From NCBI GenBank assembly GCA_965207225.1, contig CBDBLV010000005.1:1088001-1152000 (forward strand): a DNA stretch of 64,000 nucleotides. The letters are read 5' to 3'. Position 1 is the stretch's first letter; each line of letters begins with the position of its first letter. The notes beneath the pieces were generated by a model that was not told the origin of the DNA, did no database searches, and worked only from the letters and a program-made list of their open reading frames with translations. This document shows positions 7,171 through 52,300 of this stretch, one piece after another. The position numbers and the translations under genes are program-made. Origin of the DNA: Dehalococcoidia bacterium (GTDB taxonomy: Bacteria > Chloroflexota > Dehalococcoidia > Plut-88900).

Positions 7171-7253
7171 CCCCACTCCCCTCGGGCGCTGCCTGAGGGA
7201 CGACAACTGGATGAGCGAGAGGATTGAGGTCCGCCCACTGATATAATTCGGTC

Positions 7254-7790
7254 ATGCCCAAGACACCCCCCATGTACACGGGATTCGGAGACGGCGGCCA
7301 GACGGGGCTGCTTTACGGCGGCCGGGTATCCAAGGCCGACCCTCGATGCGAGGCGTACGGAGCGCTGGACGAGGCTGTATCGGCGATGGGGCTCGGGCGG
7401 GCGCTGTCTGCCAAGGAGGACGTGAGGGAGATACTTCTGGGGCTGCAGAAGGAGGCGTTCACGGTCGGGGGGGAGATTGCGATAGACACGGAGTTCTACC
7501 CGAAGTTCCTGCAGCACTTCCAGAAGGTCACTGCCGAAATGGTGGACAAGCTGGAGGAGACGACCGACACACTGACCGAGAAGATCGAGCCGCCGCGGGA
7601 GTTCATCATGCCAGGGGGGTCGGGTGCGGGGGCAGCGATAGACCTGGCCCGGTCGACGGTGCGCCGGGCGGAGAGGCGGACGGTCGAGCTCATGGACTCG
7701 GGGCTGCTGACGAATACGGAGATACCGCGCTACCTGAACCGGCTGAGCTCTCTGCTGTTCGTACTGGCTCGGTACGAGGAGACGACCTAG
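7254..7790 (+). CDS. pduO: PduO-type cob(I)alamin adenosyltransferase
   Basis: YTGFGDGGQT, RVSK, YGALDE, ARSTVRRAER, YLNRLSSLLFVLAR; TATAAT lies 6 nt before ATG (possibly leaderless). Confidence 0.9.
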   Translation: MPKTPPMYTGFGDGGQTGLLYGGRVSKADPRCEAYGALDEAVSAMGLGRALSAKEDVREILLGLQKEAFTVGGEIAIDTEFYPKFLQHFQKVTAEMVDKLEETTDTLTEKIEPPREFIMPGGSGAGAAIDLARSTVRRAERRTVELMDSGLLTNTEIPRYLNRLSSLLFVLARYEETT

Positions 7791-8749
7791 GCCAGCCCCC
7801 CGATCCTCGACAGGAGCATTTCGATGAAGCGCTCACCGTCCACGCCGGACGCTACCCGGCAGTTGGGCTCGATTCCCACGTTTGCCGGAGGCCGGTAGGG
7901 GACGGTCATTCCTCTTGTCAGGCCTTCCTTGACTTCAACATGGATGCGACGGGGGGCGTCGGTCATCAGGGAAGGGTCGATCACAACTGCGGTGGCCATG
8001 GGGTCGTGCATGTAGGTGCCGTCGAAGCCGCTCTGGGCCTGGGTGAAGTCCATGTAGAACTGGCAGCAGTCGAAGGCGAACCGGCCGGCCCTGCCGCCCT
8101 TGTCGACGAACCACTCCCGGGCAGCGCTTCTCATCAGGCCGATGCCGTGGGTAGCGTCGGTGGGGACGAAGGTAAGGGGGATGCCGGACTCGAGGAGGAC
8201 GTAGAGGGCTTCGGGGTCTACGTAGGTGTTGAACTCGGCGGCAAAGAGGGGCTCGATGTTGCCGGGGGCGTCGACGGCACCGCCCATGATGACGATCTCT
8301 GCGGCCTGGGACATCTTGTCGGGGAACTGCCGGATGGCCAGGGCAACGTTTGTGACGGGGCCGGTGGCGACTATGGTTACCTCGCCCGGCTTCTCGGCGG
8401 CCATGTCAGCGAGGGCTTGGACGGCGTGCGTGTCGGACAGGAGGTCCCAGTCGAGGCCAGGGTAGTAGTCGTCGCCCAAGTCGCCAAGACCATCCTCGCC
8501 GTGGACCGCGGCGGCCATGTAGAGCTCCTTGACCAGGGGCGCCGACTCACCCTTGAACACGGGAGGCCTCTTTCCTTCCTGCACGAAGGAGAGGATACGC
8601 AGGACGTTCCTGGTGCAGTTGTCAACATGGGCGTTGCCGCTGACCGTGGTGATCCCGATCACATCCACCTCGGGAGAGGCGAGGGCAAGGAGAATGGCGA
8701 GGGCGTCGTCGACGCCGGCGTCAACGTCGAGGATGATGGGTCTAGGCAT
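7787..8749 (-). CDS. Nucleoside hydrolase (IU-NH family)
   Basis: DVDAGVDDA, VHGEDGLG, TGPVTNVA, AEFN, MHDPMA. Confidence 0.92.
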   Translation of the reverse strand: MPRPIILDVDAGVDDALAILLALASPEVDVIGITTVSGNAHVDNCTRNVLRILSFVQEGKRPPVFKGESAPLVKELYMAAAVHGEDGLGDLGDDYYPGLDWDLLSDTHAVQALADMAAEKPGEVTIVATGPVTNVALAIRQFPDKMSQAAEIVIMGGAVDAPGNIEPLFAAEFNTYVDPEALYVLLESGIPLTFVPTDATHGIGLMRSAAREWFVDKGGRAGRFAFDCCQFYMDFTQAQSGFDGTYMHDPMATAVVIDPSLMTDAPRRIHVEVKEGLTRGMTVPYRPPANVGIEPNCRVASGVDGERFIEMLLSRIGGLA

Positions 8750-8835
8750 TGGAAGCACCTCCAATTGCGGGGCTATGCGGGCCTCGGTTGGGGTATATTG
8801 TGCGGGTCCGAGCCCCAGTAAAGGAGCATCTTAAC

Positions 8836-9747
8836 ATCAAGCCTATAGTCGTAGCCGGGGGCATCAACATGGACCTGATAGCCACGGCGGAGAGAATGCC
8901 CCGGCCGGGCGAGACGGTGTTCGCCTCGGGGCTGACGCGGGTGGCGGGGGGCAAGGGGCTGAACCAGGCGGTTGCAGCAAGGCGTCTCGGGTGTGCGTCA
9001 GTGTACATGCTCGGGAGCGTGGGGGAAGACCCGTTCGGTGAGGAGCTGCTGGAGTTCATGGGGGAGGAGGGCATCGGGGCGGTGGGGGTGGGTCGGGCGG
9101 ATGTTCCGACGGGGATGGCTCTCATCACGGTTGATGAGCAGGCGGAGAACACGATCGTGGTAGCGGTGGGGGCTAACTCCCGGCTGTCTGCCGGGGACGT
9201 GGACTCGCAGTCCGGCATTATCGAAGGTGCGGGTGTCGCTTTAGCACAGCTTGAAGTGCACATCGAGGCTGTACAGAGGTTCCTGTCGATTGCCAGAGGG
9301 GCAGGCGTCACGACCATCCTGAACGCTGCTCCGGCGCTGCCCCTGCCCGATGCCCTGCTATCACTGGTGGGCATACTGTGCCTGAACGAGACGGAGCTGG
9401 CGGAGATGTCGGGCCTTGCCGAGACTCCGGAGGAACGTGAGAGCATCGCGGCGGCGGCCCGCGGGCTGGTGGCGAGGGGAGCGGGATGCGCGATAGTGAC
9501 GCTGGGTAAGGGGGGCGCTCTGGTTGTCACTGCGGATGGGGACACCCTGCACCCGGGCGTCGAGGTGGAGGCGGTGGACCCGACGGGAGCCGGAGACTGC
9601 TTTCTCGGGGGGCTGGCGGCGAGGCTGAGCGAAGGGGCGTCGCTAGCGGAGGCGGTGGAATTTGCGAACAGGGCAGCGGCGGTGTCGGTGCAGAGGACGG
9701 GGGCGAGCTCTTCGATTCCGTATCGGGGTGAGGTGGGAGGGGTGTAG
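8836..9747 (+). CDS. rbsK: Ribokinase (start uncertain)
   Basis: GGINMDL, GGKGLNQAVAA, LNAAPA, NETE, DPTGAGDCF; divergent from the nucleoside hydrolase. Confidence 0.88.
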   Translation: MKPIVVAGGINMDLIATAERMPRPGETVFASGLTRVAGGKGLNQAVAARRLGCASVYMLGSVGEDPFGEELLEFMGEEGIGAVGVGRADVPTGMALITVDEQAENTIVVAVGANSRLSAGDVDSQSGIIEGAGVALAQLEVHIEAVQRFLSIARGAGVTTILNAAPALPLPDALLSLVGILCLNETELAEMSGLAETPEERESIAAAARGLVARGAGCAIVTLGKGGALVVTADGDTLHPGVEVEAVDPTGAGDCFLGGLAARLSEGASLAEAVEFANRAAAVSVQRTGASSSIPYRGEVGGV

Positions 9748-9810
9748 GATGTTCGATTGTTTTGGGGTTTCAGGCACGGCTTTGATTGTTTAAGGAGCGG
9801 GATAGGAACA

Positions 9811-9930
9811 GGAACCCTCACCCCCTTTATCCCCCTCTCCCTTAGGGCCTTTAAAGGAGAGGGGGAAAGAAGAACAGAGGCAGAGGTTGGCGCTGAAGCG
9901 CCAACCTCTGCCTCTAGTTCAATACTGGGG
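9811..9930 (+). repeat. Composite double-hairpin cassette, copy a
   Basis: GGAACCCTCACCCCC..CCCCCTCTCC..GGAGAGGGGG..AGAGGC[hairpin]GCCTCTAGTT..TACTGGGG; other copies at 32282, 35807, 49953, partial at 11443. Confidence 0.9.
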
Positions 9931-10025
9931 AGAAGGGAGGGGATGACGCATAAGGAAGGGGCGAGGATGGATTCACGCCGTGGGCGCATCTTGCAGCCGG
10001 CTCGGGGGCGGGATGACGGAGGGGG

Positions 10026-11354
10026 TCAGGGAGGGGGGCGGCCCCGGGCGATGCGGGGTGGGGGGTCTTCGTCATGGGGTGACGGGTCGGTGGTATGCGG
10101 GCCATCCCACGCTCGTACTTCGAGGGTCTCAGCATGAGCGGCACCACCGACGGGGAGGGGATCACCCTCACCCCAACCCTCTCCCCTCAAGGGAGAGGGG
10201 GTAGGACTCCTTCCCTCGGCCCTACCGTCAGGGAGGGTATCGATGTGGGTGGCGTCCAGGGTACCCACAAGGGGCACCCCTACGGGGGAGGGGAGGGTGT
10301 CGGCGTCTTCATCGTCATCAGGGTCGGGGTCATAGTCGTCGTCTTCGTCGTCATCCTCTTCGAGGTCATCAAGGAAGTCCGGGGGGATGTAGGTCCCGGC
10401 GAACCTGCGCATGGCCTGTTCATCGGCTGGCCATTCATCTTCTTCCGGGGGCCAGGGCTCGTCGGGGTCGATGAGGCCGAAGCGCCAGCGGTTATGGATG
10501 GGGATGAGGTGTCTCCAGGGCCACCACCTGTCTCCGGGCCGGGCCATGCGGACGGGGATGAGGTCGCGGAAGTCGAGGTCACCCCTGTCTACGTTGTCCT
10601 GGAAGACCTTCTTGATGAGATTGTCGATTTGCTCTTCGTCGGTGAGCTGCTTGGGGGCCTTGGCCTGGGCCGAGTATGCCCGGATGATGAGTCGGAGGCA
10701 GCGGTTGATCTGGGTGTAGTCCAGGGGGCGCGTGCTCAAGAGGCGGTTGGTCAACGAGCGGAGGAGGGCGATTTCGCCTTCGATGTCCGGGCTGTCGGTG
10801 CACAGCCGGGGCAGGGAAGGAGAAGTGTGGGACAGGGAGCGGCGACGGTTGGGGCGTCGGCCCCTGGGCCTTCGGCCGCGCCCGACGGGGCGGGAAGTCT
10901 TCCGCGGCTTGCGGCCGCGGGCATCCGTGCCCTGGTAGGTAGCCCGGGCACGGGGACTCTTCCGCGGTGCAGCACCGCAGGCATCCGCTTCTACGCCCGG
11001 TAAGGCGGAGCGGGGGTTCTTCCGCGGCGCAATGCCGCAGGCATCCGCTTCTACGCCCGGTAAGGCGGAGCGGGGGTTCTTCCGCGGCGCAGTGCCGCAT
11101 GCATCCGCTTCTACGCCCGGGGAGGCGGAGCGGGGTCTCTTCCGCGGCTCAGTGCCGCAGGCATCCGTGCCCTGGCAGGCAGCCCGGGTACGGGGGTTCT
11201 TCCGCGGTCTGCGGCCGCGGGCATCCGCGAGGGGGTCGGGCTTGAGGAGACCAACCGCCTCTTGAGCAGGCGCCCCTTTTTGGGGGCGTCGGGGGCCCGG
11301 TTTGGCGGGCCCCCTGTTTGACAAGGTCTTGTTGTGATGTTTGGGTGTAGACAT
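10026..11354 (-). CDS. Hypothetical protein of dispersed element, copy 1 (20-aa repeats, EIALLR helical domain, acidic tail)
   Basis: Paralog of 48772-49857 with shared MSTPK start, EIALLRS..NRLLS.RPLD core, WWPWR.L and RIARGRPPP end. Confidence 0.65.
   Translation of the reverse strand: MSTPKHHNKTLSNRGPAKPGPRRPQKGAPAQEAVGLLKPDPLADARGRRPRKNPRTRAACQGTDACGTEPRKRPRSASPGVEADACGTAPRKNPRSALPGVEADACGIAPRKNPRSALPGVEADACGAAPRKSPRARATYQGTDARGRKPRKTSRPVGRGRRPRGRRPNRRRSLSHTSPSLPRLCTDSPDIEGEIALLRSLTNRLLSTRPLDYTQINRCLRLIIRAYSAQAKAPKQLTDEEQIDNLIKKVFQDNVDRGDLDFRDLIPVRMARPGDRWWPWRHLIPIHNRWRFGLIDPDEPWPPEEDEWPADEQAMRRFAGTYIPPDFLDDLEEDDDEDDDYDPDPDDDEDADTLPSPVGVPLVGTLDATHIDTLPDGRAEGRSPTPSPLRGEGWGEGDPLPVGGAAHAETLEVRAWDGPHTTDPSPHDEDPPPRIARGRPPP
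10251..10283 (-). repeat. GTAG-type REP palindrome inside ORF
   Basis: Minus strand GTAG-GGGTGCCC-CTTGT-GGGTACCC; identical copy at 48892-48924. Confidence 0.8.
10891..11227. repeat. 60-bp-period tandem array (six 37-nt conserved blocks, five 23-nt linkers)
   Basis: CGGGGGTTCTTCCGCGG-N7-CCGCRGGCATCCG-like blocks start at 10891, 10951, 11011, 11071, 11131 and 11191. Confidence 0.95.
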
Positions 11355-11368
11355 TAGGTCTGAACGTT

Positions 11369-11396
11369 AGTATAGAACGTATATGGCAGAAGTCAA
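11369..11396 (-). promoter_or_regulatory. Sigma70-like promoter TTGACT-N16-TATACT
   Basis: Same architecture as TTGACA-N16-TATACT at 49872-49899 ahead of the paralog. Confidence 0.7.
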
Positions 11397-11694
11397 GAGG
11401 CAAAGGGGGTGTTTTGGGGGGATTTTCCCCCCGGCCCCTCAAGGGAACCCTCTCCGCCTTGGGCCTCTAGTTCAGTACTGGGGGGAAGGCATCCCCTCCC
11501 GGCCGCCCCGGGAGTAATATGAGTCCCGCCCGCCCGCCCTGTTTTATTGACATATCAAAAATGCGTTGCATTTTTGATATGTCTTTGCCAAGGGGGGAGG
11601 AGGGTGGGAAGGGTGTGAGCAGCTATGGACGAGGTAGGTTGGGGGAGGGGCGTTTGAGATTCCTCGCGGGGCTTCGGAATGGGAAAGGGGTGAT

Positions 11695-12006
11695 GGTGAA
11701 TGCCGAGGTGGGTTTGGGGGACCTGCACCGAACCGCCCCAGATTCCTCACTGCCGTTCGGAATGACAGTGAGGGGCGTCGGCTGACGGTGGAGGTATGCG
11801 AGGGCTTGAAGATGCGTGGGCCACCCCCCGCTCATACTTCGACGGAGCTCAGCACGAGCGGCCCCACCCCACGCCGGGGATGGATTCCCGATCAGGGTCG
11901 GGAATGACGGAGATGGGGGGAGGGGGGGTGAATGGCGAGGTGGGTTGGGAGACCTGCACCGAACCGCCCCAGATTCCTCACTGCCGTTCGGAATGACAGT
12001 GAGGGG
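11695..12006 (+). repeat. About 80-bp direct repeat (11695-11775, 11927-12006) flanking family A and B palindromes
   Basis: GACCTGCACCGAACCGCCCCAGATTCCTCACTGCCGTTCGGAATGACAGTGAGGGG occurs twice. Confidence 0.9.
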
Positions 12007-12037
12007 TGTGGATTGGGGGGGCGGCGGGGGAGTCTTG

Positions 12038-12802
12038 TTAGCGGGCCTGGTAGTTGGGTTTTCGTTTTTCGGAGAAGGCTTTGGGGCCTTCTTTGCTGTC
12101 GGCGCTTTCGTAGAGGGCTGACATGAGGGTGTGGACGAGGTGGAGACCCTCGTTGTGGGGCATGTTGGAGCCGCGGTAGGCGAGGTCCCGGGTGACGCGT
12201 ACGGAAAGGGGGGCGTTTTCGCAGATGCGCCGGGCCAGGGACTCGGCGGTGGACATGAGGGCGTCGGGGGGCACCACCTGGCTCACGAGGCCGATACGCA
12301 GGGCCTTTTCGGCGTCGATGAAGTCGCCGGTTAACAGGAGCTCCATGGCGTCGGACATGCCGATTATTTTGGGGAGGCGCAGGGCGCCATAGCCGTGGAG
12401 GAGGCCCCAGCGGGGCTCGGGGCAGCCGAAGGAGGCGGTATTCGAGGCGATCCTGATGTCGCAGGCGATGGCCAGCTCGAGGCCACCGGCGAGGCAGTAG
12501 CCGTTGATGGCGGCAATGAAGGGCTTCACGGACATGGGCTGGTCATAGTGCTTGAACATGGAGTAGGGCTGGCCCGGGCCTTCAAGCTCCCGGGTGACGT
12601 ACTCCTTGAGGTCTCCCCCGGCGCTGAATGCCCTGTCGCCCGCGCCGGTTACTATGGCGACCCAGACATTCGGGTCCCGGTCGACTTCCTCGATAGCGGT
12701 ACGGAGCCTCTGCTTAAGCTCCTCGTTGATGGCGTTCATGGCCTGGGGTCGATTCATGGTGATGTAGGCGACCCTGTCGCGGACTTCGTAGTCTAGAACC
12801 AT
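12038..12802 (-). CDS. Enoyl-CoA hydratase/isomerase
   Basis: NRPQAMNA, FSAGGDL, AAINGYCLAGGLELAIACDIR, FSEKRKP. Confidence 0.92.
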   Translation of the reverse strand: MVLDYEVRDRVAYITMNRPQAMNAINEELKQRLRTAIEEVDRDPNVWVAIVTGAGDRAFSAGGDLKEYVTRELEGPGQPYSMFKHYDQPMSVKPFIAAINGYCLAGGLELAIACDIRIASNTASFGCPEPRWGLLHGYGALRLPKIIGMSDAMELLLTGDFIDAEKALRIGLVSQVVPPDALMSTAESLARRICENAPLSVRVTRDLAYRGSNMPHNEGLHLVHTLMSALYESADSKEGPKAFSEKRKPNYQAR

Positions 12803-46573: not shown

Positions 46574-47980
46574 CTATTCGTTCTCCGTTTCGGCGCCCGG
46601 AACCCGGTATCCCGGACGGTACCCGAGGCTCTCCGCCTGTTCGAAAGATTCAAAGTAAACGAGGTTTCCCGTGTGGAGGCGTCGGGAGGGATGGAAGCCT
46701 GCCTTGTGGAAGACCCTGGTCCTGCGGCTGCCTGCGGCCTCGGCGGTGGTGTCCCGCTGGCAGTAGCGGCAGCGGAGGACGGCGGGCCTTTCATCTACGA
46801 GGGCGAATTCGGGGGTGATGTAGGTGCTCTCCTTGTTGGAGACGCAGGTGGGGTTGGGGCACCTGATCCCTTCCTCAGACTTATAGGGGGGATAGTCCAG
46901 GGAGTAGGCGAAGCTGCCGGGATGGGTGGAGGCCTCGGGGTTTGATACGCCCAGGAAGGATGCGAGGAGCGCCATCCTAACCGGCACGCCATAGGCGGCC
47001 TGCTTGAAGTAGATGCTCCGTTCATCCTTATCGAGGGCGTAGTCGATTTCGTCCACGCGGGGGAGGGGGTGCATGATGAGGGCATCCCTGAAGCTGGGAC
47101 GACGCATGAACTCCCTGTCGACGCGGAGGGCGTCGTCGGGGGAGGGGTCCTGGGCGTCGACCTGGCGCTCCTTCTGCGTGCGGCTGGCATACACGACGTC
47201 GAGGTTGGGCTTGACAGCCTGGGTCGTGGCACTGAACTGGGCGGCGAGGTCCATCTTGGCGTTGGGGTCGGGGAGGGGAAGCTGGGACTGGGTCAGGTAT
47301 ATGGCGTCCATTTCCCTGAAGGAAGCGGAGGCACCGCCTTTCCCCTCGGTGACGATGCCCATGTACTCGCGGTTCAGGCGGTCCTTCACATAGTCGGGGA
47401 GCTCAAGACCCTTGCTGGGCATGAACATGATGTTGGCGCCAAACCCGGCCAGGGCGTAGGTGAGGGAATGTACGGTGCGGGCATTCCTCAGGTCGCCGCA
47501 AAGGACGACGGTGAGGTCTCGGATCTCTCCCTTTTCCCGTTTGAGGGTGTAGAGGTCGCAGAGGGACTGAGTGGGGTGCTCGTGGCTGCCATCACCGGCG
47601 TTGATAACGGGGACCGAGGCGTAGTCGGCGACGACGCGTGCTGCACCTTCCCAAGGATGCCGGACGACGATGATGTCGACATAGCTACTGATGACGCGTG
47701 CGGTGTCGGCGAGGGTCTCGCCCTTGGCGATGGAGGTGGTGCTGACGTCTACGGCCGTCACGACGCTGCCTCCGAGCCGGAGCATGGCGGTCTCGAAGGA
47801 GAGGCGGGTGCGGGTGCTGGGTTCGTAGAAAAGGCTGGCCATGACCATGCCCTTGCAGAGGTTGGAGTGGCCACGGATATCGGTGTGCATCCGGTCGGCG
47901 AGGGAGAAGATAGCCTCTATCTCGTCGTTGGAGACGTCGTCGACGGTGACGAGGTTGCGGCCCTTGAGGTCTATCGCCAT
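46574..47980 (-). CDS. pyrB: Aspartate carbamoyltransferase fused to PyrI-like Zn domain and Ada-like tail
   Basis: FYEPSTRT, KGETLADT, HPTQ, MHPLPR, then CPNPTC...RCRYC. Confidence 0.92.
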   Translation of the reverse strand: MAIDLKGRNLVTVDDVSNDEIEAIFSLADRMHTDIRGHSNLCKGMVMASLFYEPSTRTRLSFETAMLRLGGSVVTAVDVSTTSIAKGETLADTARVISSYVDIIVVRHPWEGAARVVADYASVPVINAGDGSHEHPTQSLCDLYTLKREKGEIRDLTVVLCGDLRNARTVHSLTYALAGFGANIMFMPSKGLELPDYVKDRLNREYMGIVTEGKGGASASFREMDAIYLTQSQLPLPDPNAKMDLAAQFSATTQAVKPNLDVVYASRTQKERQVDAQDPSPDDALRVDREFMRRPSFRDALIMHPLPRVDEIDYALDKDERSIYFKQAAYGVPVRMALLASFLGVSNPEASTHPGSFAYSLDYPPYKSEEGIRCPNPTCVSNKESTYITPEFALVDERPAVLRCRYCQRDTTAEAAGSRRTRVFHKAGFHPSRRLHTGNLVYFESFEQAESLGYRPGYRVPGAETENE

Positions 47981-48555
47981 TTCGCACCTCCCGCTACACG
48001 TTCGGCATCCGTTGAAGGTACACCGCTCCCGAGCAGCACCACCTCGTCCCTCCCATCCATCTCCTCCAAACGGACTTTGACGGTCTGGTCGAGGGACGTC
48101 GGGATGTTCTTTCCTACGAAGTCGGCGCGGATGGGGAGCTCCCGGTGGCCCCTATCGATGAGGACGAGGAGCTGCACGGAGCGGGGGCGGCCGAGCTTGA
48201 CTATGGCATCGAGGGCGGCGCGAACGGTCCGGCCGGTGAACAGGACGTCGTCAACGAGGACCACGTTGCGGCCTGCCACGCCGCCGCGGATGGTCAGTCC
48301 TTTGCCGTTGGAGGGTTGAGGAGGCGAGGGAAGGTCATCGCGGAAGGGCCTGGTGTCCAGGGCGGCGACGGGTATGCGGCCATTGCCGTTGCCGGAGATG
48401 TTGTTGGCGATGCGCCGGGCCAGGGGTTCGCCGCGGCTGAGAATGCCGATAAGCAACAGGTCCGAAGTATCGGCGTGAGCTTCGACAAGCTCGTGGGAGA
48501 CCCTTTTGAGGGCCTTGCGGATGTCTTTGGCGGACAGGAGGACGGTGTCGGCCAA
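47971..48555 (-). CDS. pyrR: Pyrimidine operon attenuation protein / UPRTase
   Basis: GILSRG, LVDDVLFTGRTVRAA, DRGHRELPIRADFVG. Confidence 0.95.
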   Translation of the reverse strand: MADTVLLSAKDIRKALKRVSHELVEAHADTSDLLLIGILSRGEPLARRIANNISGNGNGRIPVAALDTRPFRDDLPSPPQPSNGKGLTIRGGVAGRNVVLVDDVLFTGRTVRAALDAIVKLGRPRSVQLLVLIDRGHRELPIRADFVGKNIPTSLDQTVKVRLEEMDGRDEVVLLGSGVPSTDAERVAGGAKWR

Positions 48556-48650
48556 AAAAATACCCCTGCCTGAGGGCGGCAAGGGTGTAGGCCGAAATCG
48601 GCTGCGGTAATCCTGTTTTCCTTGCCAGCCTCTCTGGACTGAATTAAAGG
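48554..48650 (-). promoter_or_regulatory. PyrR-binding attenuator (binding loop plus terminator)
   Basis: CCTTTAATTCAGTCCAGAGAGGCTGGCAAGG fits the ARUCCNGNGAGGYU consensus; downstream ACCCTTGCC..GGCAGGGGT-ATTTTTTT terminator. Confidence 0.9.
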
Positions 48651-48771
48651 TCCGTTACCGCGATTAGGTGGTTGTCGGGTGCTGGTTGCTGGGGTTTATT
48701 GTAGCGCGAACCAGGCCGGCGGGGCAAGGGAATGCGCGGTCGGGCCTTATTTGTCGGGCGGTCCTGAGGGG

Positions 48772-49857
48772 TCAGGGCGGGGGGCGGCCCCGGGCGATGC
48801 GGGGTTTGGGTGAGGGGCTGGGAAAGGGGTAGGCCCAACCGGGCGACCGGCCGGTCGCCCCTACGGCGGAGGGGAGGGTATCGGCGTGGGCGGCGTCCAG
48901 GGTACCCACAAGGGGCACCCCTACAGGGGAGAGGGATGGACCCATTTCTTCGGGGGGCGGGGCGTCATCGTCCAGGTTGTGGTTGTAGGGCGGGTAGTCG
49001 GGGTGGGAGTCTTCATCATCGGGGTCTTGGTTGTCGGAATTGGAAGAAGAATCCGGGTCATCGGGGTCATAGTCATCGTCGTCGGGGTCATCATCGAAGG
49101 TGTCAGTGTCGTCAGAAAGATCATCATCGAGCGGGTTGCCGTAGTAGCGGGCCTCGGCCTCTTTCATGGCATCCATCATGGTGGAGTCCTCTTCATCGAT
49201 GAGGCCGTCCCGGCGTCGCTCATCTATGGACACCAGCTGTCTCCAGGGCCACCACTTCTCCCCGGGCCTGGCTGTGCGGACGGGGAGGAGGTCATAGTAG
49301 GAGGTATTGCCATCATCCACCTCCTTGTGGAAGAGCTTCTTGATGAGGGAGTCGACTTCCTGTTCGTCGGTGAGCTCTCTGGGAGCTTTGGCCTGGGCGG
49401 ACTGGGCCTGTATGAGGAGTCGCATGTAGCGGGAGATGTAGGTGTGGTCCAGGGGGCGCCTGCTCAAGAGGCGGTTGATCATGGAACGAAGGAGAGCAAT
49501 CTCCTGCTCGAAGCCCCGGCCCTCGGGGGCCAGACGCGGCAACGAGCCTTCGGCTTGGCCGGCATTACCGGACCCATCGCGGTTTTGCGGGTACGGTCTT
49601 CCGCGTCGACTGCGCTCCTGACGTGCAGGGGCGGGGGTGCGGGTCTTCTTCTGCGGTAGGTTGCCGCAGGCATCCGAGGTCGTGAGGATCGCGTCGGGGG
49701 ACGCCGGGCCTCGGGGGTTCTTCCGCGGCGCAGGGCCGCGGGCATCCGGGGCCAGGTCGGGCCCCGGGGGGAGATCAACCGCCTCTTGAGCGGGCGCCCC
49801 GTTGGAGGGGTGATGGAAGATTGACAGTAATTTGTTGTGAAGTTTGGGTGTAGACAT
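48772..49857 (-). CDS. Hypothetical protein of dispersed element, copy 2
   Basis: Paralog of 10026-11354 with two repeat units instead of six. Confidence 0.65.
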   Translation of the reverse strand: MSTPKLHNKLLSIFHHPSNGAPAQEAVDLPPGPDLAPDARGPAPRKNPRGPASPDAILTTSDACGNLPQKKTRTPAPARQERSRRGRPYPQNRDGSGNAGQAEGSLPRLAPEGRGFEQEIALLRSMINRLLSRRPLDHTYISRYMRLLIQAQSAQAKAPRELTDEQEVDSLIKKLFHKEVDDGNTSYYDLLPVRTARPGEKWWPWRQLVSIDERRRDGLIDEEDSTMMDAMKEAEARYYGNPLDDDLSDDTDTFDDDPDDDDYDPDDPDSSSNSDNQDPDDEDSHPDYPPYNHNLDDDAPPPEEMGPSLSPVGVPLVGTLDAAHADTLPSAVGATGRSPGWAYPFPSPSPKPRIARGRPPP

Positions 49858-49952
49858 TCGGTCTGAACGTTAGTATAGAACGTGCAGTGCAGTTGTCAAT
49901 AGGCAGAGGGGGCAGTTTTGGGGGAGTTTCCCCCAGGGCCCCGGGGGGGGGG

Positions 49953-50094
49953 GGAACCCTCACCCCCTTGGTCCCCCTCTCCCCCTCGAGGGACTCGAGG
50001 CAGGCTCTTAGGGCCTGTAAGGGAGAGGGGGAGAAAAAACAGAGGCAGGCGCATGTGCTATGCACATGCGCCTGCCTCTAGTTTGGTACTGGGG
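49953..50094 (+). repeat. Composite double-hairpin cassette, copy d
   Basis: Inner hairpin AGAGGCAGGCGCATGTGC-TAT-GCACATGCGCCTGCCTCT. Confidence 0.9.
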
Positions 50095-50719
50095 GGAAGG
50101 AGATGGAGGGAGGTGGTCGGCTAGAGATGGGGTGGGTTGGGGGAGAGGTGCGACAGATCCCTCGCGGGGCATCGGGATGGGAAAATTGGAGCGTTGGGAC
50201 AGGATCTAGCCCTCTGCCCTCGAGAGGGCTTTGAATAACTGGTCTCTTGGCACTCGTATCACCCTCACCCCCCGACTTCTCGGGGGCAGGCTCTAGCCCT
50301 CTCCCATCGAGGGGGAGGGGACTGAAGACCCCGCCTCGCCCCGCGGGGTAGATTCCGGCTTGGGGAGCAAGATGATGGAGAATGGGAATCGAAGGGGATG
50401 GAAGGGGTGGGGGGATGTGGGGTATCTTAGGAGGCCGGATGAGACAGAATTAGGCAGGGAGGGCTTTTGGAATGGATAAGATAAGGATTATGCCGAAGGG
50501 GCATTGGTATTGGAGTATGCCGGTGCCGTTTTCGCAGGGTTGGAAGGTCGGGAAGATGGTATTCGTCGGGGGGCAGATAGCGGCGGATGAGCATGGTGTC
50601 AATACCCAGGAACATTGAGCCACAATACCCACTAACATTGAGCCAGATAACCAGGGTCTTTGAGCCACCCTGAGCGCCCCAGCTTAGACCATTGCAGCAC
50701 TTGATAAGGAGGTGCCGCG

Positions 50720-52300
50720 ATGGCCTACAAGGAGGTACTCAGAGTGGAGATAGAAGAAGTCATCCGGCGCTGGCAGGCTGGAGAGAGCCAGCGCCACATA
50801 GCGACTGGGACGGGCCTGTCCCGGAACACGGTGGTCAAATACATCTCCTCGGCGGAGAGGTTGGGGCTGTCCCGGGACGGACCGGGTCCCAGCGAGGAGC
50901 AGCTGAGCAAGCTGGCGGCCATCGGCCGTGCGGGACCGCGGCAGACCAAGATGCCCATAGAGGAGAGGCTGTCCCCCTGGGCCGACCAGATTCAGCAGTG
51001 GCTCATCGGGGACCGGCTGCAACTGACCCGCATCCGGGAGTTGCTCTTGGAGCGGGGCTGCGATGTGCCCTATTCGTCGTTACAGCGCTTCGTGGCCCGC
51101 CGCAACTGGCGAGGCCGCAGTCTTCGGACGGTGCGGATGGAGGAGAGTCCTCCGGGCGAGGTGGCGGAGCTGGACTTCGGTCGGCTGGGGCCGCTGGAGG
51201 ACCCGGAGACGGGACGCCGCCGGACGGTGTGGGCGCTGATCGTGGTGCTGGCCTACTCGCGGCACAGCTTCGTCTGGCCCACCCACGGGCAGAAGCTGGA
51301 GGACGTGGTCGCCGGACTGGAGGCGGCCTGGGCTTTCTTCGACGGCATACCCAAGTACCTGGTCATCGACAACTTCCCGGCGGCGGTGGCCGGGGCCGAC
51401 GCCCTGCACCCCAGGCTGACCAGGGGCTTCCTGGAGTACTCGCAGCGCCGGGGCTTCATCACCGACCCGGCCCGGGTGCGCCACCCCAGGGATAAGCCCA
51501 AGGTGGAGCGGGGAGTCCAGTACGTGAGAGAGCGCTTCTTCAAGGGAGCCTCCTTCAGGGACCTGCCTCACATGCGGAAGGAAGCGCTCCACTGGTGCCG
51601 TGAGGTGGCCGGACAGCGGGTGCACGGCACCACCAGGCGCAAGCCCGTGGAGGTCTTCGACACAGAGGAGCGCCAGACGTTGCTGCCCTGGGACGGCGAT
51701 CCCTACGAGGTTACCCGCTGGCGCAACGCCAAGGTGCAGCGCGACCACCACGTGACCTGCCAGCACGCCCTCTACTCGGTGCCGTCGGCCCTGTGCCCTC
51801 CGGGGCAGCAGGTGGAGATCGCGCTGGACAGCAAGCTGGTGCGCATCTACCACCGGGGCAAGCTGATCAAGGTCCATCCCCGTCAGCCCAGGGGCAAACG
51901 CTCCACCGACACCGACGACTACCCAAAGGAGTTCATCGCCTACACCCTGCGAGGGCCCGACAAGATCAAGCAGAGCGCGGCGGAGCTGGGAGAGGCGGTG
52001 GCCGCCTTCGCCGACCGGCTCTTCGAAGGCCCCACGCCTTGGGCCAAGGTGCGGCAGGGACACAAGCTGCTCCGCCTCGCCCAGCGCTACACCCCCGACC
52101 GGCTGAACGACGCCTGCCGCAAGGCCTTGGACGTGGACCTCATCGACGTGCACCGCGTCGAGCGCATCCTGGTTGAAGCCCTGGAGCAGCAGGATGCGCC
52201 GCCCCTTGCCGACCTCATACCGCCGGGGCGCTTCGCCAGGCCCGGCTCCGTCTTCGCCCTGGTCAACGGCCATCACCCAACCGAAGGAGTTACGCTATGA
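50720..52300 (+). CDS. istA: IS21 transposase
   Basis: N-terminal HTH, PGEVAELDFG, YSR, DN, P.DKPKVER, YSVP. Confidence 0.95.
   Translation: MAYKEVLRVEIEEVIRRWQAGESQRHIATGTGLSRNTVVKYISSAERLGLSRDGPGPSEEQLSKLAAIGRAGPRQTKMPIEERLSPWADQIQQWLIGDRLQLTRIRELLLERGCDVPYSSLQRFVARRNWRGRSLRTVRMEESPPGEVAELDFGRLGPLEDPETGRRRTVWALIVVLAYSRHSFVWPTHGQKLEDVVAGLEAAWAFFDGIPKYLVIDNFPAAVAGADALHPRLTRGFLEYSQRRGFITDPARVRHPRDKPKVERGVQYVRERFFKGASFRDLPHMRKEALHWCREVAGQRVHGTTRRKPVEVFDTEERQTLLPWDGDPYEVTRWRNAKVQRDHHVTCQHALYSVPSALCPPGQQVEIALDSKLVRIYHRGKLIKVHPRQPRGKRSTDTDDYPKEFIAYTLRGPDKIKQSAAELGEAVAAFADRLFEGPTPWAKVRQGHKLLRLAQRYTPDRLNDACRKALDVDLIDVHRVERILVEALEQQDAPPLADLIPPGRFARPGSVFALVNGHHPTEGVTL

Follow-up and report, generated by a model that had tools for sequence, protein, structure and literature searches.

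What kind of genetic unit combines its own promoter, a hairpin array within a reading frame and a conserved protein core, and how does it multiply? This question is raised by two related units, copies A and B, lying on the minus strand of a 64,000-nucleotide stretch (the window) of a Dehalococcoidia bacterium of the Chloroflexota (GenBank assembly GCA_965207225.1, contig CBDBLV010000005.1, positions 1,088,001 to 1,152,000). The original prediction, made from the letters of the window, had described a two-copy dispersed element that was either non-autonomous or an RNA-plus-protein system. The latter description fits the results reported here: the 5' third of the unit is structured with covariation, and the core and the C-terminus are under protein-level selection. 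We favour, with moderate confidence, the reading that the units belong to a genus-specific RNA-plus-protein gene whose copies spread through repeat-rich intergenic regions by duplication at the DNA level, conversion and ectopic recombination. If this is true, one stretch of DNA is selected both as a helix-closed RNA domain and as an open reading frame (ORF) feeding a conserved protein.

A promoter-to-stop unit in one genus

Each window copy contains a long minus-strand ORF (A, 10026..11354, 442 aa; B, 48772..49857, 361 aa); the two align at E=2e-61 and share the EIALLRS...WWPWR core noticed at the outset. The source genome is a metagenome-assembled genome (MAG) of 92.3% completeness and 8.33% contamination (hereafter G000; relatives are labelled G001, G004, G005, G007, G008 and so on). 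A whole-genome protein search and a tblastn search with the core gave the same count in G000, 11 open copies on four contigs, and the promoter–leader, ATG–leader and 3'-end motifs occur exactly 11 times each, all at these loci. The element predicted to be two-copy thus has two copies inside the window but 11 in the genome, and it is not confined to two syntenic sites. Three subfamilies are present in G000: L (five copies with about six repeat units), S (four copies with two units) and D (two copies with a divergent core).

In a search of 40 related genomes, the core was found in all eight other congeneric genomes (1, 1, 1, 2, 2, 3, 9 and 12 matches) and in none of three other genera of the family or 29 other families of the class. 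Among one genome each of 185,579 species, 30 loci were detected, all within the same eight congeneric MAGs. An exhaustive phmmer search of 1.84 billion representative proteins yielded 24 matches, two of them due to chance, and a profile search yielded 24 proteins, all of which are family members, none being named or bearing a Pfam domain. The two chance matches are giant proteins that match core residues 85-111 ten or eleven times; they were rejected, as a chance match of about 30 residues is multiplied in them by internal repeats.

The unit extends from promoter to stop and is 1.2-1.6 kb long, depending on the copy. When the 11 loci with 2.5-kb flanks were compared all against all, the homology common to most copy pairs started some 105-111 nt before the ATG and ended within about 17 nt of the stop. 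Judged from its sequence and distribution, the family is a genus-restricted multicopy orphan gene with its own promoter and without a match to any described system; full-text searches, limited to open-access papers, found no description of such a unit in print.

Sigma-70-type promoters lie before both window copies, compared with 0.2-0.5 expected in shuffled sequences, and the TTGAC-N16-TATACT promoter and the ATG lacking a Shine-Dalgarno sequence, as first described, are seen in A and B (Table 1). In 38 of 39 loci, a scored scan found a promoter with at least 9 of 12 consensus matches no more than 75 nt from the start codon; the -10 element ends 7-14 nt before that codon in 32 of the 39. The start codon is ATG in 38 of these loci and ACG in copy L3. 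Because the -10 element ends so near the start codon, the mRNA is predicted to be leaderless or near-leaderless, in agreement with the missing Shine-Dalgarno sequence.

A helix-closed array and a selected protein in one frame

Between the leader and the core, each gene carries one to seven tandem 60-nt double hairpins. The six hairpin blocks of copy A and the two of copy B, counted as DA[RC]G repeats, agree with the numbers first reported. Pooling 34 genes gave 99 in-register 60-nt units, 83 of them distinct. Entropy in the array is 0.65/0.545/0.658 by codon position, with no wobble excess; stem bases are invariant even at third positions and loops vary freely. The leader behaves in the same way (0.438/0.504/0.507; ratio of nonsynonymous to synonymous substitution rates, dN/dS, 0.745). 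By these substitution patterns, the array is constrained as nucleic acid, not as codons. The motif of the 60-nt repeat is almost confined to the family in G000 (20 of 21 hits).

The two-hairpin structure was tested on 66 distinct units. Pairing holds in 88.7% of array cells as against 27-56% when the partners are slid, and double-sided changes occur in 59 cells as against 16.6 in shuffles, a level reached by none of 500 shuffles. Compensatory changes affect 8 of 17 array pairs. The second hairpin exists in three sequence types, all of which pair; in type II the alternative stem has Watson-Crick pairs in 47 of 48 cells. In the well-defined array helices G.U cells outnumber A.C cells by 63 to 15, an excess that favours folding of the sense strand. 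The 5' region of copy A, taken without the 3' arm of the helix described below, folds with z = -4.16, compared with z = -0.56 for a core-coding control. Free energy was discarded as a strand test, since the sense (z = -4.16) and antisense (z = -4.49) folds are equally stable. No Rfam family scored at its gathering threshold, and the sole hits were miRNA-like matches to the repeat hairpins.

The array of both window copies is enclosed by a 28-nt inverted repeat, 96% complementary in each, that the first reading had missed (Table 1). In sense RNA, leader codons for GAPAQEAV(G/D) would pair with core codons for (T/I)NRLLS.RP. All 33 genes that retain a 5' end have this closing helix, whatever their subfamily or species, and 312-579 nt separate its arms. 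Compensatory changes are seen at pair 28 (G-C in 23 genes, A-T in 5) and at pair 16, where 32 genes have A-T and one has G-C. The helix begins about 65-130 nt into the predicted transcript and closes a domain of 350-610 nt. In the first 426 nt of copy B it appears in both the minimum free energy (MFE) and the centroid folds (z = -7.87; 0 of 100 shuffles as stable). Through this predicted pairing of codons, the T/I difference in the core is mirrored by the G/D difference in the leader peptide; if the favoured reading is true, the pairing would be a well-defined natural example of how RNA structure and coding conflict and co-adapt.

The same frame is selected as protein downstream. It is open from the ATG through leader, array and core in all 34 genes, and leader indels between subfamilies stay in frame. 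Entropy in the core is 0.596/0.372/0.797 by codon position, a coding pattern, with a median dN/dS of 0.455 (557 pairs). The C-terminal motif PRIARGRPPP is in frame in 27 of 34 genes, although tails vary from 92 to 215 aa and differ in their modules. At 30 loci the first Arg of A-R-G-R is encoded by CGA, CGG, CGC, AGA or AGG, and these five synonymous codons indicate that the motif is selected as protein. The claim that DNA is best conserved at both ends of the unit therefore holds for the 5' end as nucleotides; the shared 3' end is conserved as protein.

AlphaFold models show order in the core only. The predicted local distance difference test (pLDDT) value of the core alone is 68; in the full-length model of copy B, residues 1-108 and 243-342 have pLDDT values below 50, and helices span residues 116-238. 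The region before the core is basic and predicted to be disordered, with a net charge of +6 to +32 (median +20.5), and the region after the core has a net charge of -12 to -48 (median -30). The AT-hook, a DNA-binding motif, consists of an R-G-R-P core flanked by basic residues; in this family RGRP occurs at the C-terminus and within GRGRRPRGRRP.

The Asp-rich tail does contain, in A and B alike, the shared palindromic module (GVPLVGT codons) of the original prediction. The tail modules GVPLVGTLDA, SPLRGEGWGEG and GGAAHAEALEVRA all have copies outside the family; for tail modules, 8 of 14, 8 of 9 and 6 of 9 hits in the genome lie outside it. In public runs X1 and X2 (short Logan contigs), the repetitive extragenic palindromic (REP)-like module embedded in the tail of copy A reaches a depth of 7182-12290, compared with about 10-80 in neighbouring bins, and loose contig ends cluster on either side of it, at 10161-10165 and 10199-10203. 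Also, contigs of public runs skip 113-219 nt or step back 36-45 nt in the tail repeat region at 10058-10293; these variants fit gain and loss of modules among related copies or strains.

As the sequence reads, the transcript would start a few bases before the ATG, and the 28-bp helix pairs leader codons with codons of the first core helix, closing an array domain that stays in frame. It is possible, though we hold this part with less than even confidence, that this folded domain has a cis effect on the mRNA to which it belongs. It could be a gate on translation or stability, a processing site with an RNase III-type cut in the 28-bp duplex, or a platform to which the protein's basic N-terminus binds. 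Long duplexes of 28 bp are the kind of substrate that RNase III cuts. A bolder and distinctly unlikely extension is a two-output locus forming a self-recognising RNA–protein particle: cutting of the helix would free the array as a stable RNA, uncut transcripts would be translated, and the basic 20-aa repeats, one per 60-nt unit, would bind the array. The core-less units of G001 described below would make the RNA directly, and RNA and protein together would be a new kind of element, selfish or domesticated, needing no transposase, capsid or reverse transcriptase to multiply.

Table 1. Positions of the features of copies A and B in the window, with the kind of evidence behind each.
Feature	Position	Strand	Evidence
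Unit A, shared homology from about 111 nt before ATG to about 17 nt after stop	10009..11465	-	All-versus-all comparison, alignments
Predicted promoter, copy A, TTGACT-16-TATACT; -10 ends 14 nt before ATG	11369..11396	-	10/12 consensus matches
Predicted promoter, copy B, TTGACA-16-TATACT	49872..49899	-	11/12 consensus matches
Start codon ATG, copy A, without Shine-Dalgarno sequence	11352..11354	-	ORF call; promoter scan
Closing helix, 5' arm, copy A, codons GAPAQEAVG	11249..11276	-	Inverted-repeat search, 96% complementary
Closing helix, 3' arm, copy A, inside first core helix, codons LTNRLLSTRP	10725..10752	-	Inverted-repeat search
Closing helix, 5' arm, copy B	49773..49800	-	Inverted-repeat search, 33-gene check, fold
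Closing helix, 3' arm, copy B, codons MINRLLSRRP	49453..49480	-	Inverted-repeat search; MFE and centroid fold
Hairpin array, copy A: five full 60-nt double-hairpin units and a partial sixth, encoding DA[RC]G..PRK..RS 20-aa repeats	10866..11225	-	Unit alignment, pairing test
Two-unit hairpin array, copy B	49624..49746	-	Repeat alignment, fold
Helical core, copy A, about 114-118 aa, SLPRL..EIALLRS..WWPWR..GLIDP	10461..10814	-	Alignment, dN/dS, AlphaFold 2 helices
Helical core, copy B	49186..49533	-	Alignment, AlphaFold 2 model
Acidic, predicted-disordered tail, copy A, net charge -34, partly of dispersed palindromic modules in frame	10059..10460	-	Alignment, model
REP-like palindrome, CCCTCTCCCCTCAAGGGAGAGGGG type, embedded in copy A tail	10162..10200	-	Contig depth in public runs
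C-terminal PRIARGRPPP and stop, copy A	10026..10058	-	In-frame check, Arg codons
Acidic tail, PRIARGRPPP and stop, copy B	48772..49185	-	ORF, alignment
Copy B and upstream repeat mosaic, present in G000, absent from the syntenic site of G008, G007 and G001	48731..50398	-	Comparison of filled and empty sites
Terminator-like module (stem of 19 bp, T-tract), about 110 nt beyond copy A stop	9875..9916	-	Stem and T-tract in the sequence
Same terminator-like module upstream of copy B promoter	50040..50080	-	Module found upstream of most copies

Gain, loss and exchange of copies

Comparison of syntenic sites reveals repeated gain and loss. At the site of copy B, 1.67 kb of G000 is replaced by 70, 185 and 211 nt in G008, G007 and G001, respectively, and the site is empty in three of five relatives. 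These three genomes provide the one clean insertion available, and no target-site duplication is present at its junctions; an inverted-repeat search detected no terminal inverted repeats at the boundaries of either window unit or of this insertion. At the site of copy A, G005 and G007 have a copy, G001 and G004 have none, and G008 keeps only the last ~135 nt of the ORF. The L4 site is occupied in G008 and G005, empty in G007 (~151 versus 2,437 nt) and holds a decayed copy in G004 (locus L063). At the ffh locus, where copy L5 lies, a syntenic copy is present in seven of eight relatives, including all three single-copy genomes, and this locus is taken as ancestral for that reason; in G007 it is empty, with a promoter-like remnant left. 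Empty alleles, to which the original prediction had tied its reading of a spreading unit, thus exist for B, A, L4 and L5. The empty sites of G007 contain unrelated or remnant filler and no precise excision scars. In all, 10 of the 11 G000 loci have flanks in common with loci that hold a copy in relatives, B being the sole exception.

Copies also exchange sequence with one another. Between about -60 and a point some 30 nt short of the stop, D1 and D2 show 100% identity, and they have diverged outside this tract, which reads as a product of homogenisation by conversion. Compared with G008, D1 and D2 have exchanged flanks, and so have L2 and L5, which points to inversions by recombination between inverted copies. 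The phylogenetic tree mixes old cross-species subfamilies with within-genome clusters: all seven L-copies of G005 group together, and within-genome pairs occur in G000, G004, G007 and G008. The spread would have started from the ancestral copy beside ffh and proceeded through duplication to other intergenic sites, loss, conversion and inversions. If the favoured reading is true, the family also shows how a gene may rise from 1 to 12 copies, and a chromosome be reshaped by inversions, with no recognisable mobility enzyme.

The reciprocal flank exchanges involve G000 C5:805096-806289 and C5:940569-941762 relative to G008 loci L087 and L097, and L2/L5 relative to the G008 copies at 2.11 and 2.42 Mb. 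The exchanged segments measure ~135 kb in G000 and ~308 kb in G008, and in G000 one partner has also been converted from S to D type. In addition, the upstream flanks of S2 and S4 both match G008 L089 and their downstream flanks both match L088, the flanks of S2 and S4 not being mutually homologous.

A sister unit is present at least four times in G001 (L059-L062). Its promoter is related (GTGACAC..CCCCTTGAC), its leader, about 250 nt long, is distinct, and it has an array of four units but no core; the array can therefore persist without the protein. One of these core-less units occupies a site syntenic to G000 copy L2.

No neighbour gene recurs beside 41 loci examined, invertase, phage gene and large terminase included. 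The statement that no transposase is seen holds in that no partner mobility gene recurs, but an ORF of 526 aa adjoins copy B just past its upstream mosaic (50720..52300, plus strand) and is istA-like, of the IS21 family, by reading of its translation. It does not recur at the other copies of the family. On the other side of copy B, a pyrR-like gene (47971..48582, so called by reading its translation) is directly preceded by a terminator-like hairpin, which has a T-tract, and by a promoter-like site (48562-48586 and 48698-48727, minus strand). Hairpin and promoter-like site look like a pyr attenuator, and copy B is inserted just upstream of them.

Alternative readings and known systems

The picture of a mobile or spreading unit stands as far as the range of 1-12 copies in one genus and the empty sites are concerned, but terminal inverted repeats, target-site duplication, a fixed upstream boundary and a partner gene are all missing. 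A non-autonomous mobile element moved in trans, with the promoter-to-stop unit as cargo and the conserved ends as recognition sites, is for this reason an unlikely reading, although it would account for the copy numbers, for copy B as a 1.67-kb insertion relative to three congeners, for the empty or remnant sites of A, L4 and L5, for the identity of D1 and D2 at different loci and for the reproducible minimal span of homology (about -105 to -111 through stop +17). The upstream boundary of homology shifts with the repeat mosaic, from -102 to -1079, and conservation of the 3' end is explained by protein-level selection. The Y1 (IS200/IS605-type) model PF01797, which covers REP-associated tyrosine transposases (RAYTs), found nothing in G000, a 92.3% complete assembly, and no gene recurs at the 41 loci. 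Moreover, relatives hold a copy at the syntenic place for 10 of 11 loci, the identical tract of D1 and D2 ends within the unit, as expected of conversion, and the empty sites of G007 bear filler rather than excision scars. Inversion within the gene, with the 28-bp inverted repeats flipping the array segment to switch off or recode it, is highly improbable: such repeats do flank a 290-550-bp segment inside the gene in every copy, and G.U and A.C counts in the closing helix favour no RNA strand, but all 41 assembled copies have one orientation, an in-silico flip adds stop codons in 29 of 33 genes and no invertase recurs near the loci. Short Logan contigs, which are weak evidence for rare flips, contain no strand-switch joints at the inverted-repeat arms, joints being found only in the tail repeat region.

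A promoter-driven structured non-coding RNA, which would tolerate the long ORF as a by-product or carry it as a decaying passenger, agrees with the nucleotide-level constraint on leader and array, with the core-less sister units of G001 and with copy L3, which lacks an ATG; since the GC-rich array is largely open in all three sense frames, openness there is weak evidence. We regard it as improbable in view of the wobble excess and dN/dS of the core, the five synonymous codons of the C-terminal Arg, and the frame kept in 27 of 34 genes despite variable tails, together with in-frame leader indels; nor does copy A offer an alternative start codon between array and core. The original prediction had also likened the EIALLR helix to small terminase-like proteins, and a further reading is a phage-derived packaging remnant, a TerS-like gene with an internal pac-like repeat region. 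In pac phages the pac site lies inside terS, and the layout of the unit is loosely similar. The nearest neighbours of the protein in the ESM Atlas are Chloroflexota clusters without a name (0.94); the nearest named ones are T5 small terminase (0.83) and DUF1804 (0.81), both under 0.9, the tool's threshold for anything stronger than a lead. Pfam, PHROGs, NCBIfam and PADLOC gave noise only (nothing beyond it at E<=1 in the first three), a profile search of PDB sequences gave no match for the core, Foldseek against PDB with the core model (pLDDT 68) gave a best E of 1.2, and a wide structural search (VIA) returned generic helical hairpins only, with Z<=7 over ~48 residues. A confident match of the domain to an ordinary known family was therefore found in neither library nor fold searches, and the terminase likeness gains no support beyond the weak ESM Atlas score. 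As the large-terminase models PF03237, PF03354 and PF17289 detect nothing in G000 and no phage gene recurs at the 41 loci, this origin is very improbable.

The reading of a genus-specific RNA-plus-protein gene has its own weaknesses. No RNA run was found to contain the sequence; transcription of the unit, its transcription start, array translation and processing are predictions, and the mechanism of spread is deduced from missing transposon hallmarks. Over all array pairs G.U exceeds A.C by only 79 to 55, and in the closing helix the counts are 17 to 19, with no strand call, suggesting that a DNA-level role of the repeats is possible. The array structure was read off the very units on which it was tested, which inflates the paired fraction, and these units are related copies, for which the shuffle control overstates the contrast. 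The dN/dS of the core (0.455) denotes moderate constraint only; the C-terminal frame is lost in 7 of 34 genes and L3 starts with ACG, and some copies may accordingly be decaying. Of the length of each small G000 contig (C1-C4), 10%-21% is covered by C5 matches that are 1.5 kb or longer and 90-94% identical; G000 measures 4.03 Mb compared with 2.9-3.7 Mb in congeners. The assembly may be a mix of two related strains, and contamination and internal redundancy may have inflated the count of 11 copies.

Several known systems resemble parts of the unit. Rickettsia palindromic elements (RPEs) are described in section 4.2 of a review as inserting in frame into many genes (PMC10969869). The tail modules are like RPEs in being palindromic, in frame in an ORF, present in copies elsewhere and a source of added peptide segments. 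RPEs are scattered through unrelated housekeeping genes, whereas the tail modules pile up in one orphan family and the main 60-nt repeat is tandem, family-confined and enclosed by the conserved 28-bp helix. Palindromic amphipathic repeat coding elements (PARCELs) are described as variable-number tandem repeats in ORFs of unknown function, with dyad-symmetric DNA that is shuffled within genomes (PMC2996958). As so described, they share with the present array the variable number of tandem repeats in ORFs and the dyad symmetry. PARCELs have 25 amphipathic residues, are often membrane-targeted and show a patchy spread by horizontal transfer across many phyla; by contrast, the array here encodes a basic, predicted-disordered repeat of 20 aa, is restricted to one genus and is constrained in its nucleic-acid stems. 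Large structured RNAs and ribosomal RNA (rRNA) intervening sequences offer another comparison. Intervening sequences of rRNA are helix-closed inserts processed by RNase III, and the present domain resembles this class in the long duplex that closes a large structured domain, and in its covariation. Members of the class are non-coding or lie in rRNA, whereas the domain here would lie in frame in an mRNA, with one arm encoding part of a conserved protein helix.

Short palindromes in many copies describe the flanking and tail modules but not the unit itself. Farther upstream of the units lies a mosaic of short palindromic modules whose combinations differ among copies. BOX and bacterial interspersed mosaic elements (BIMEs) are likewise modular in make-up. 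The upstream flank resembles REP/BIME, pneumococcal BOX and Correia elements as a combinatorial palindrome mosaic, one module of which is terminator-like, but those elements are 35-300 bp long and non-coding, whereas the unit is 1.2-1.6 kb and protein-coding, with no terminal inverted repeats and no RAYT found. Repeats bearing promoters are known from Correia elements and other miniature inverted-repeat transposable elements (PMC10969869, section 4.1). The terminator-like module before the copy B promoter could insulate the unit from read-through.

The terminator-like hairpin is itself contained in a composite repeat module of ~130 nt, GGAACCCTCACCCCC...CAGAGGC-hairpin-GCCTCTAGTT..GTACTGGGG, located at 9811-9942 and 49950-50095. 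The stem sequence of this composite module varies among copies while its flanks are conserved; it occurs at many sites in G001, G007 and G008, with dozens of matches per relative genome. In addition, an AT-rich near-perfect palindrome with 16-nt arms and a 3-nt centre, followed by AATAAAACAGGGCGGGCGGG, is found at 11549-11583. In A, L3 and L4 this palindrome and the promoter are ~200 nt apart, the palindrome being upstream, and S2, D1 and D2 have a variant; it is operator-like and unusual for a genome of 60% GC.

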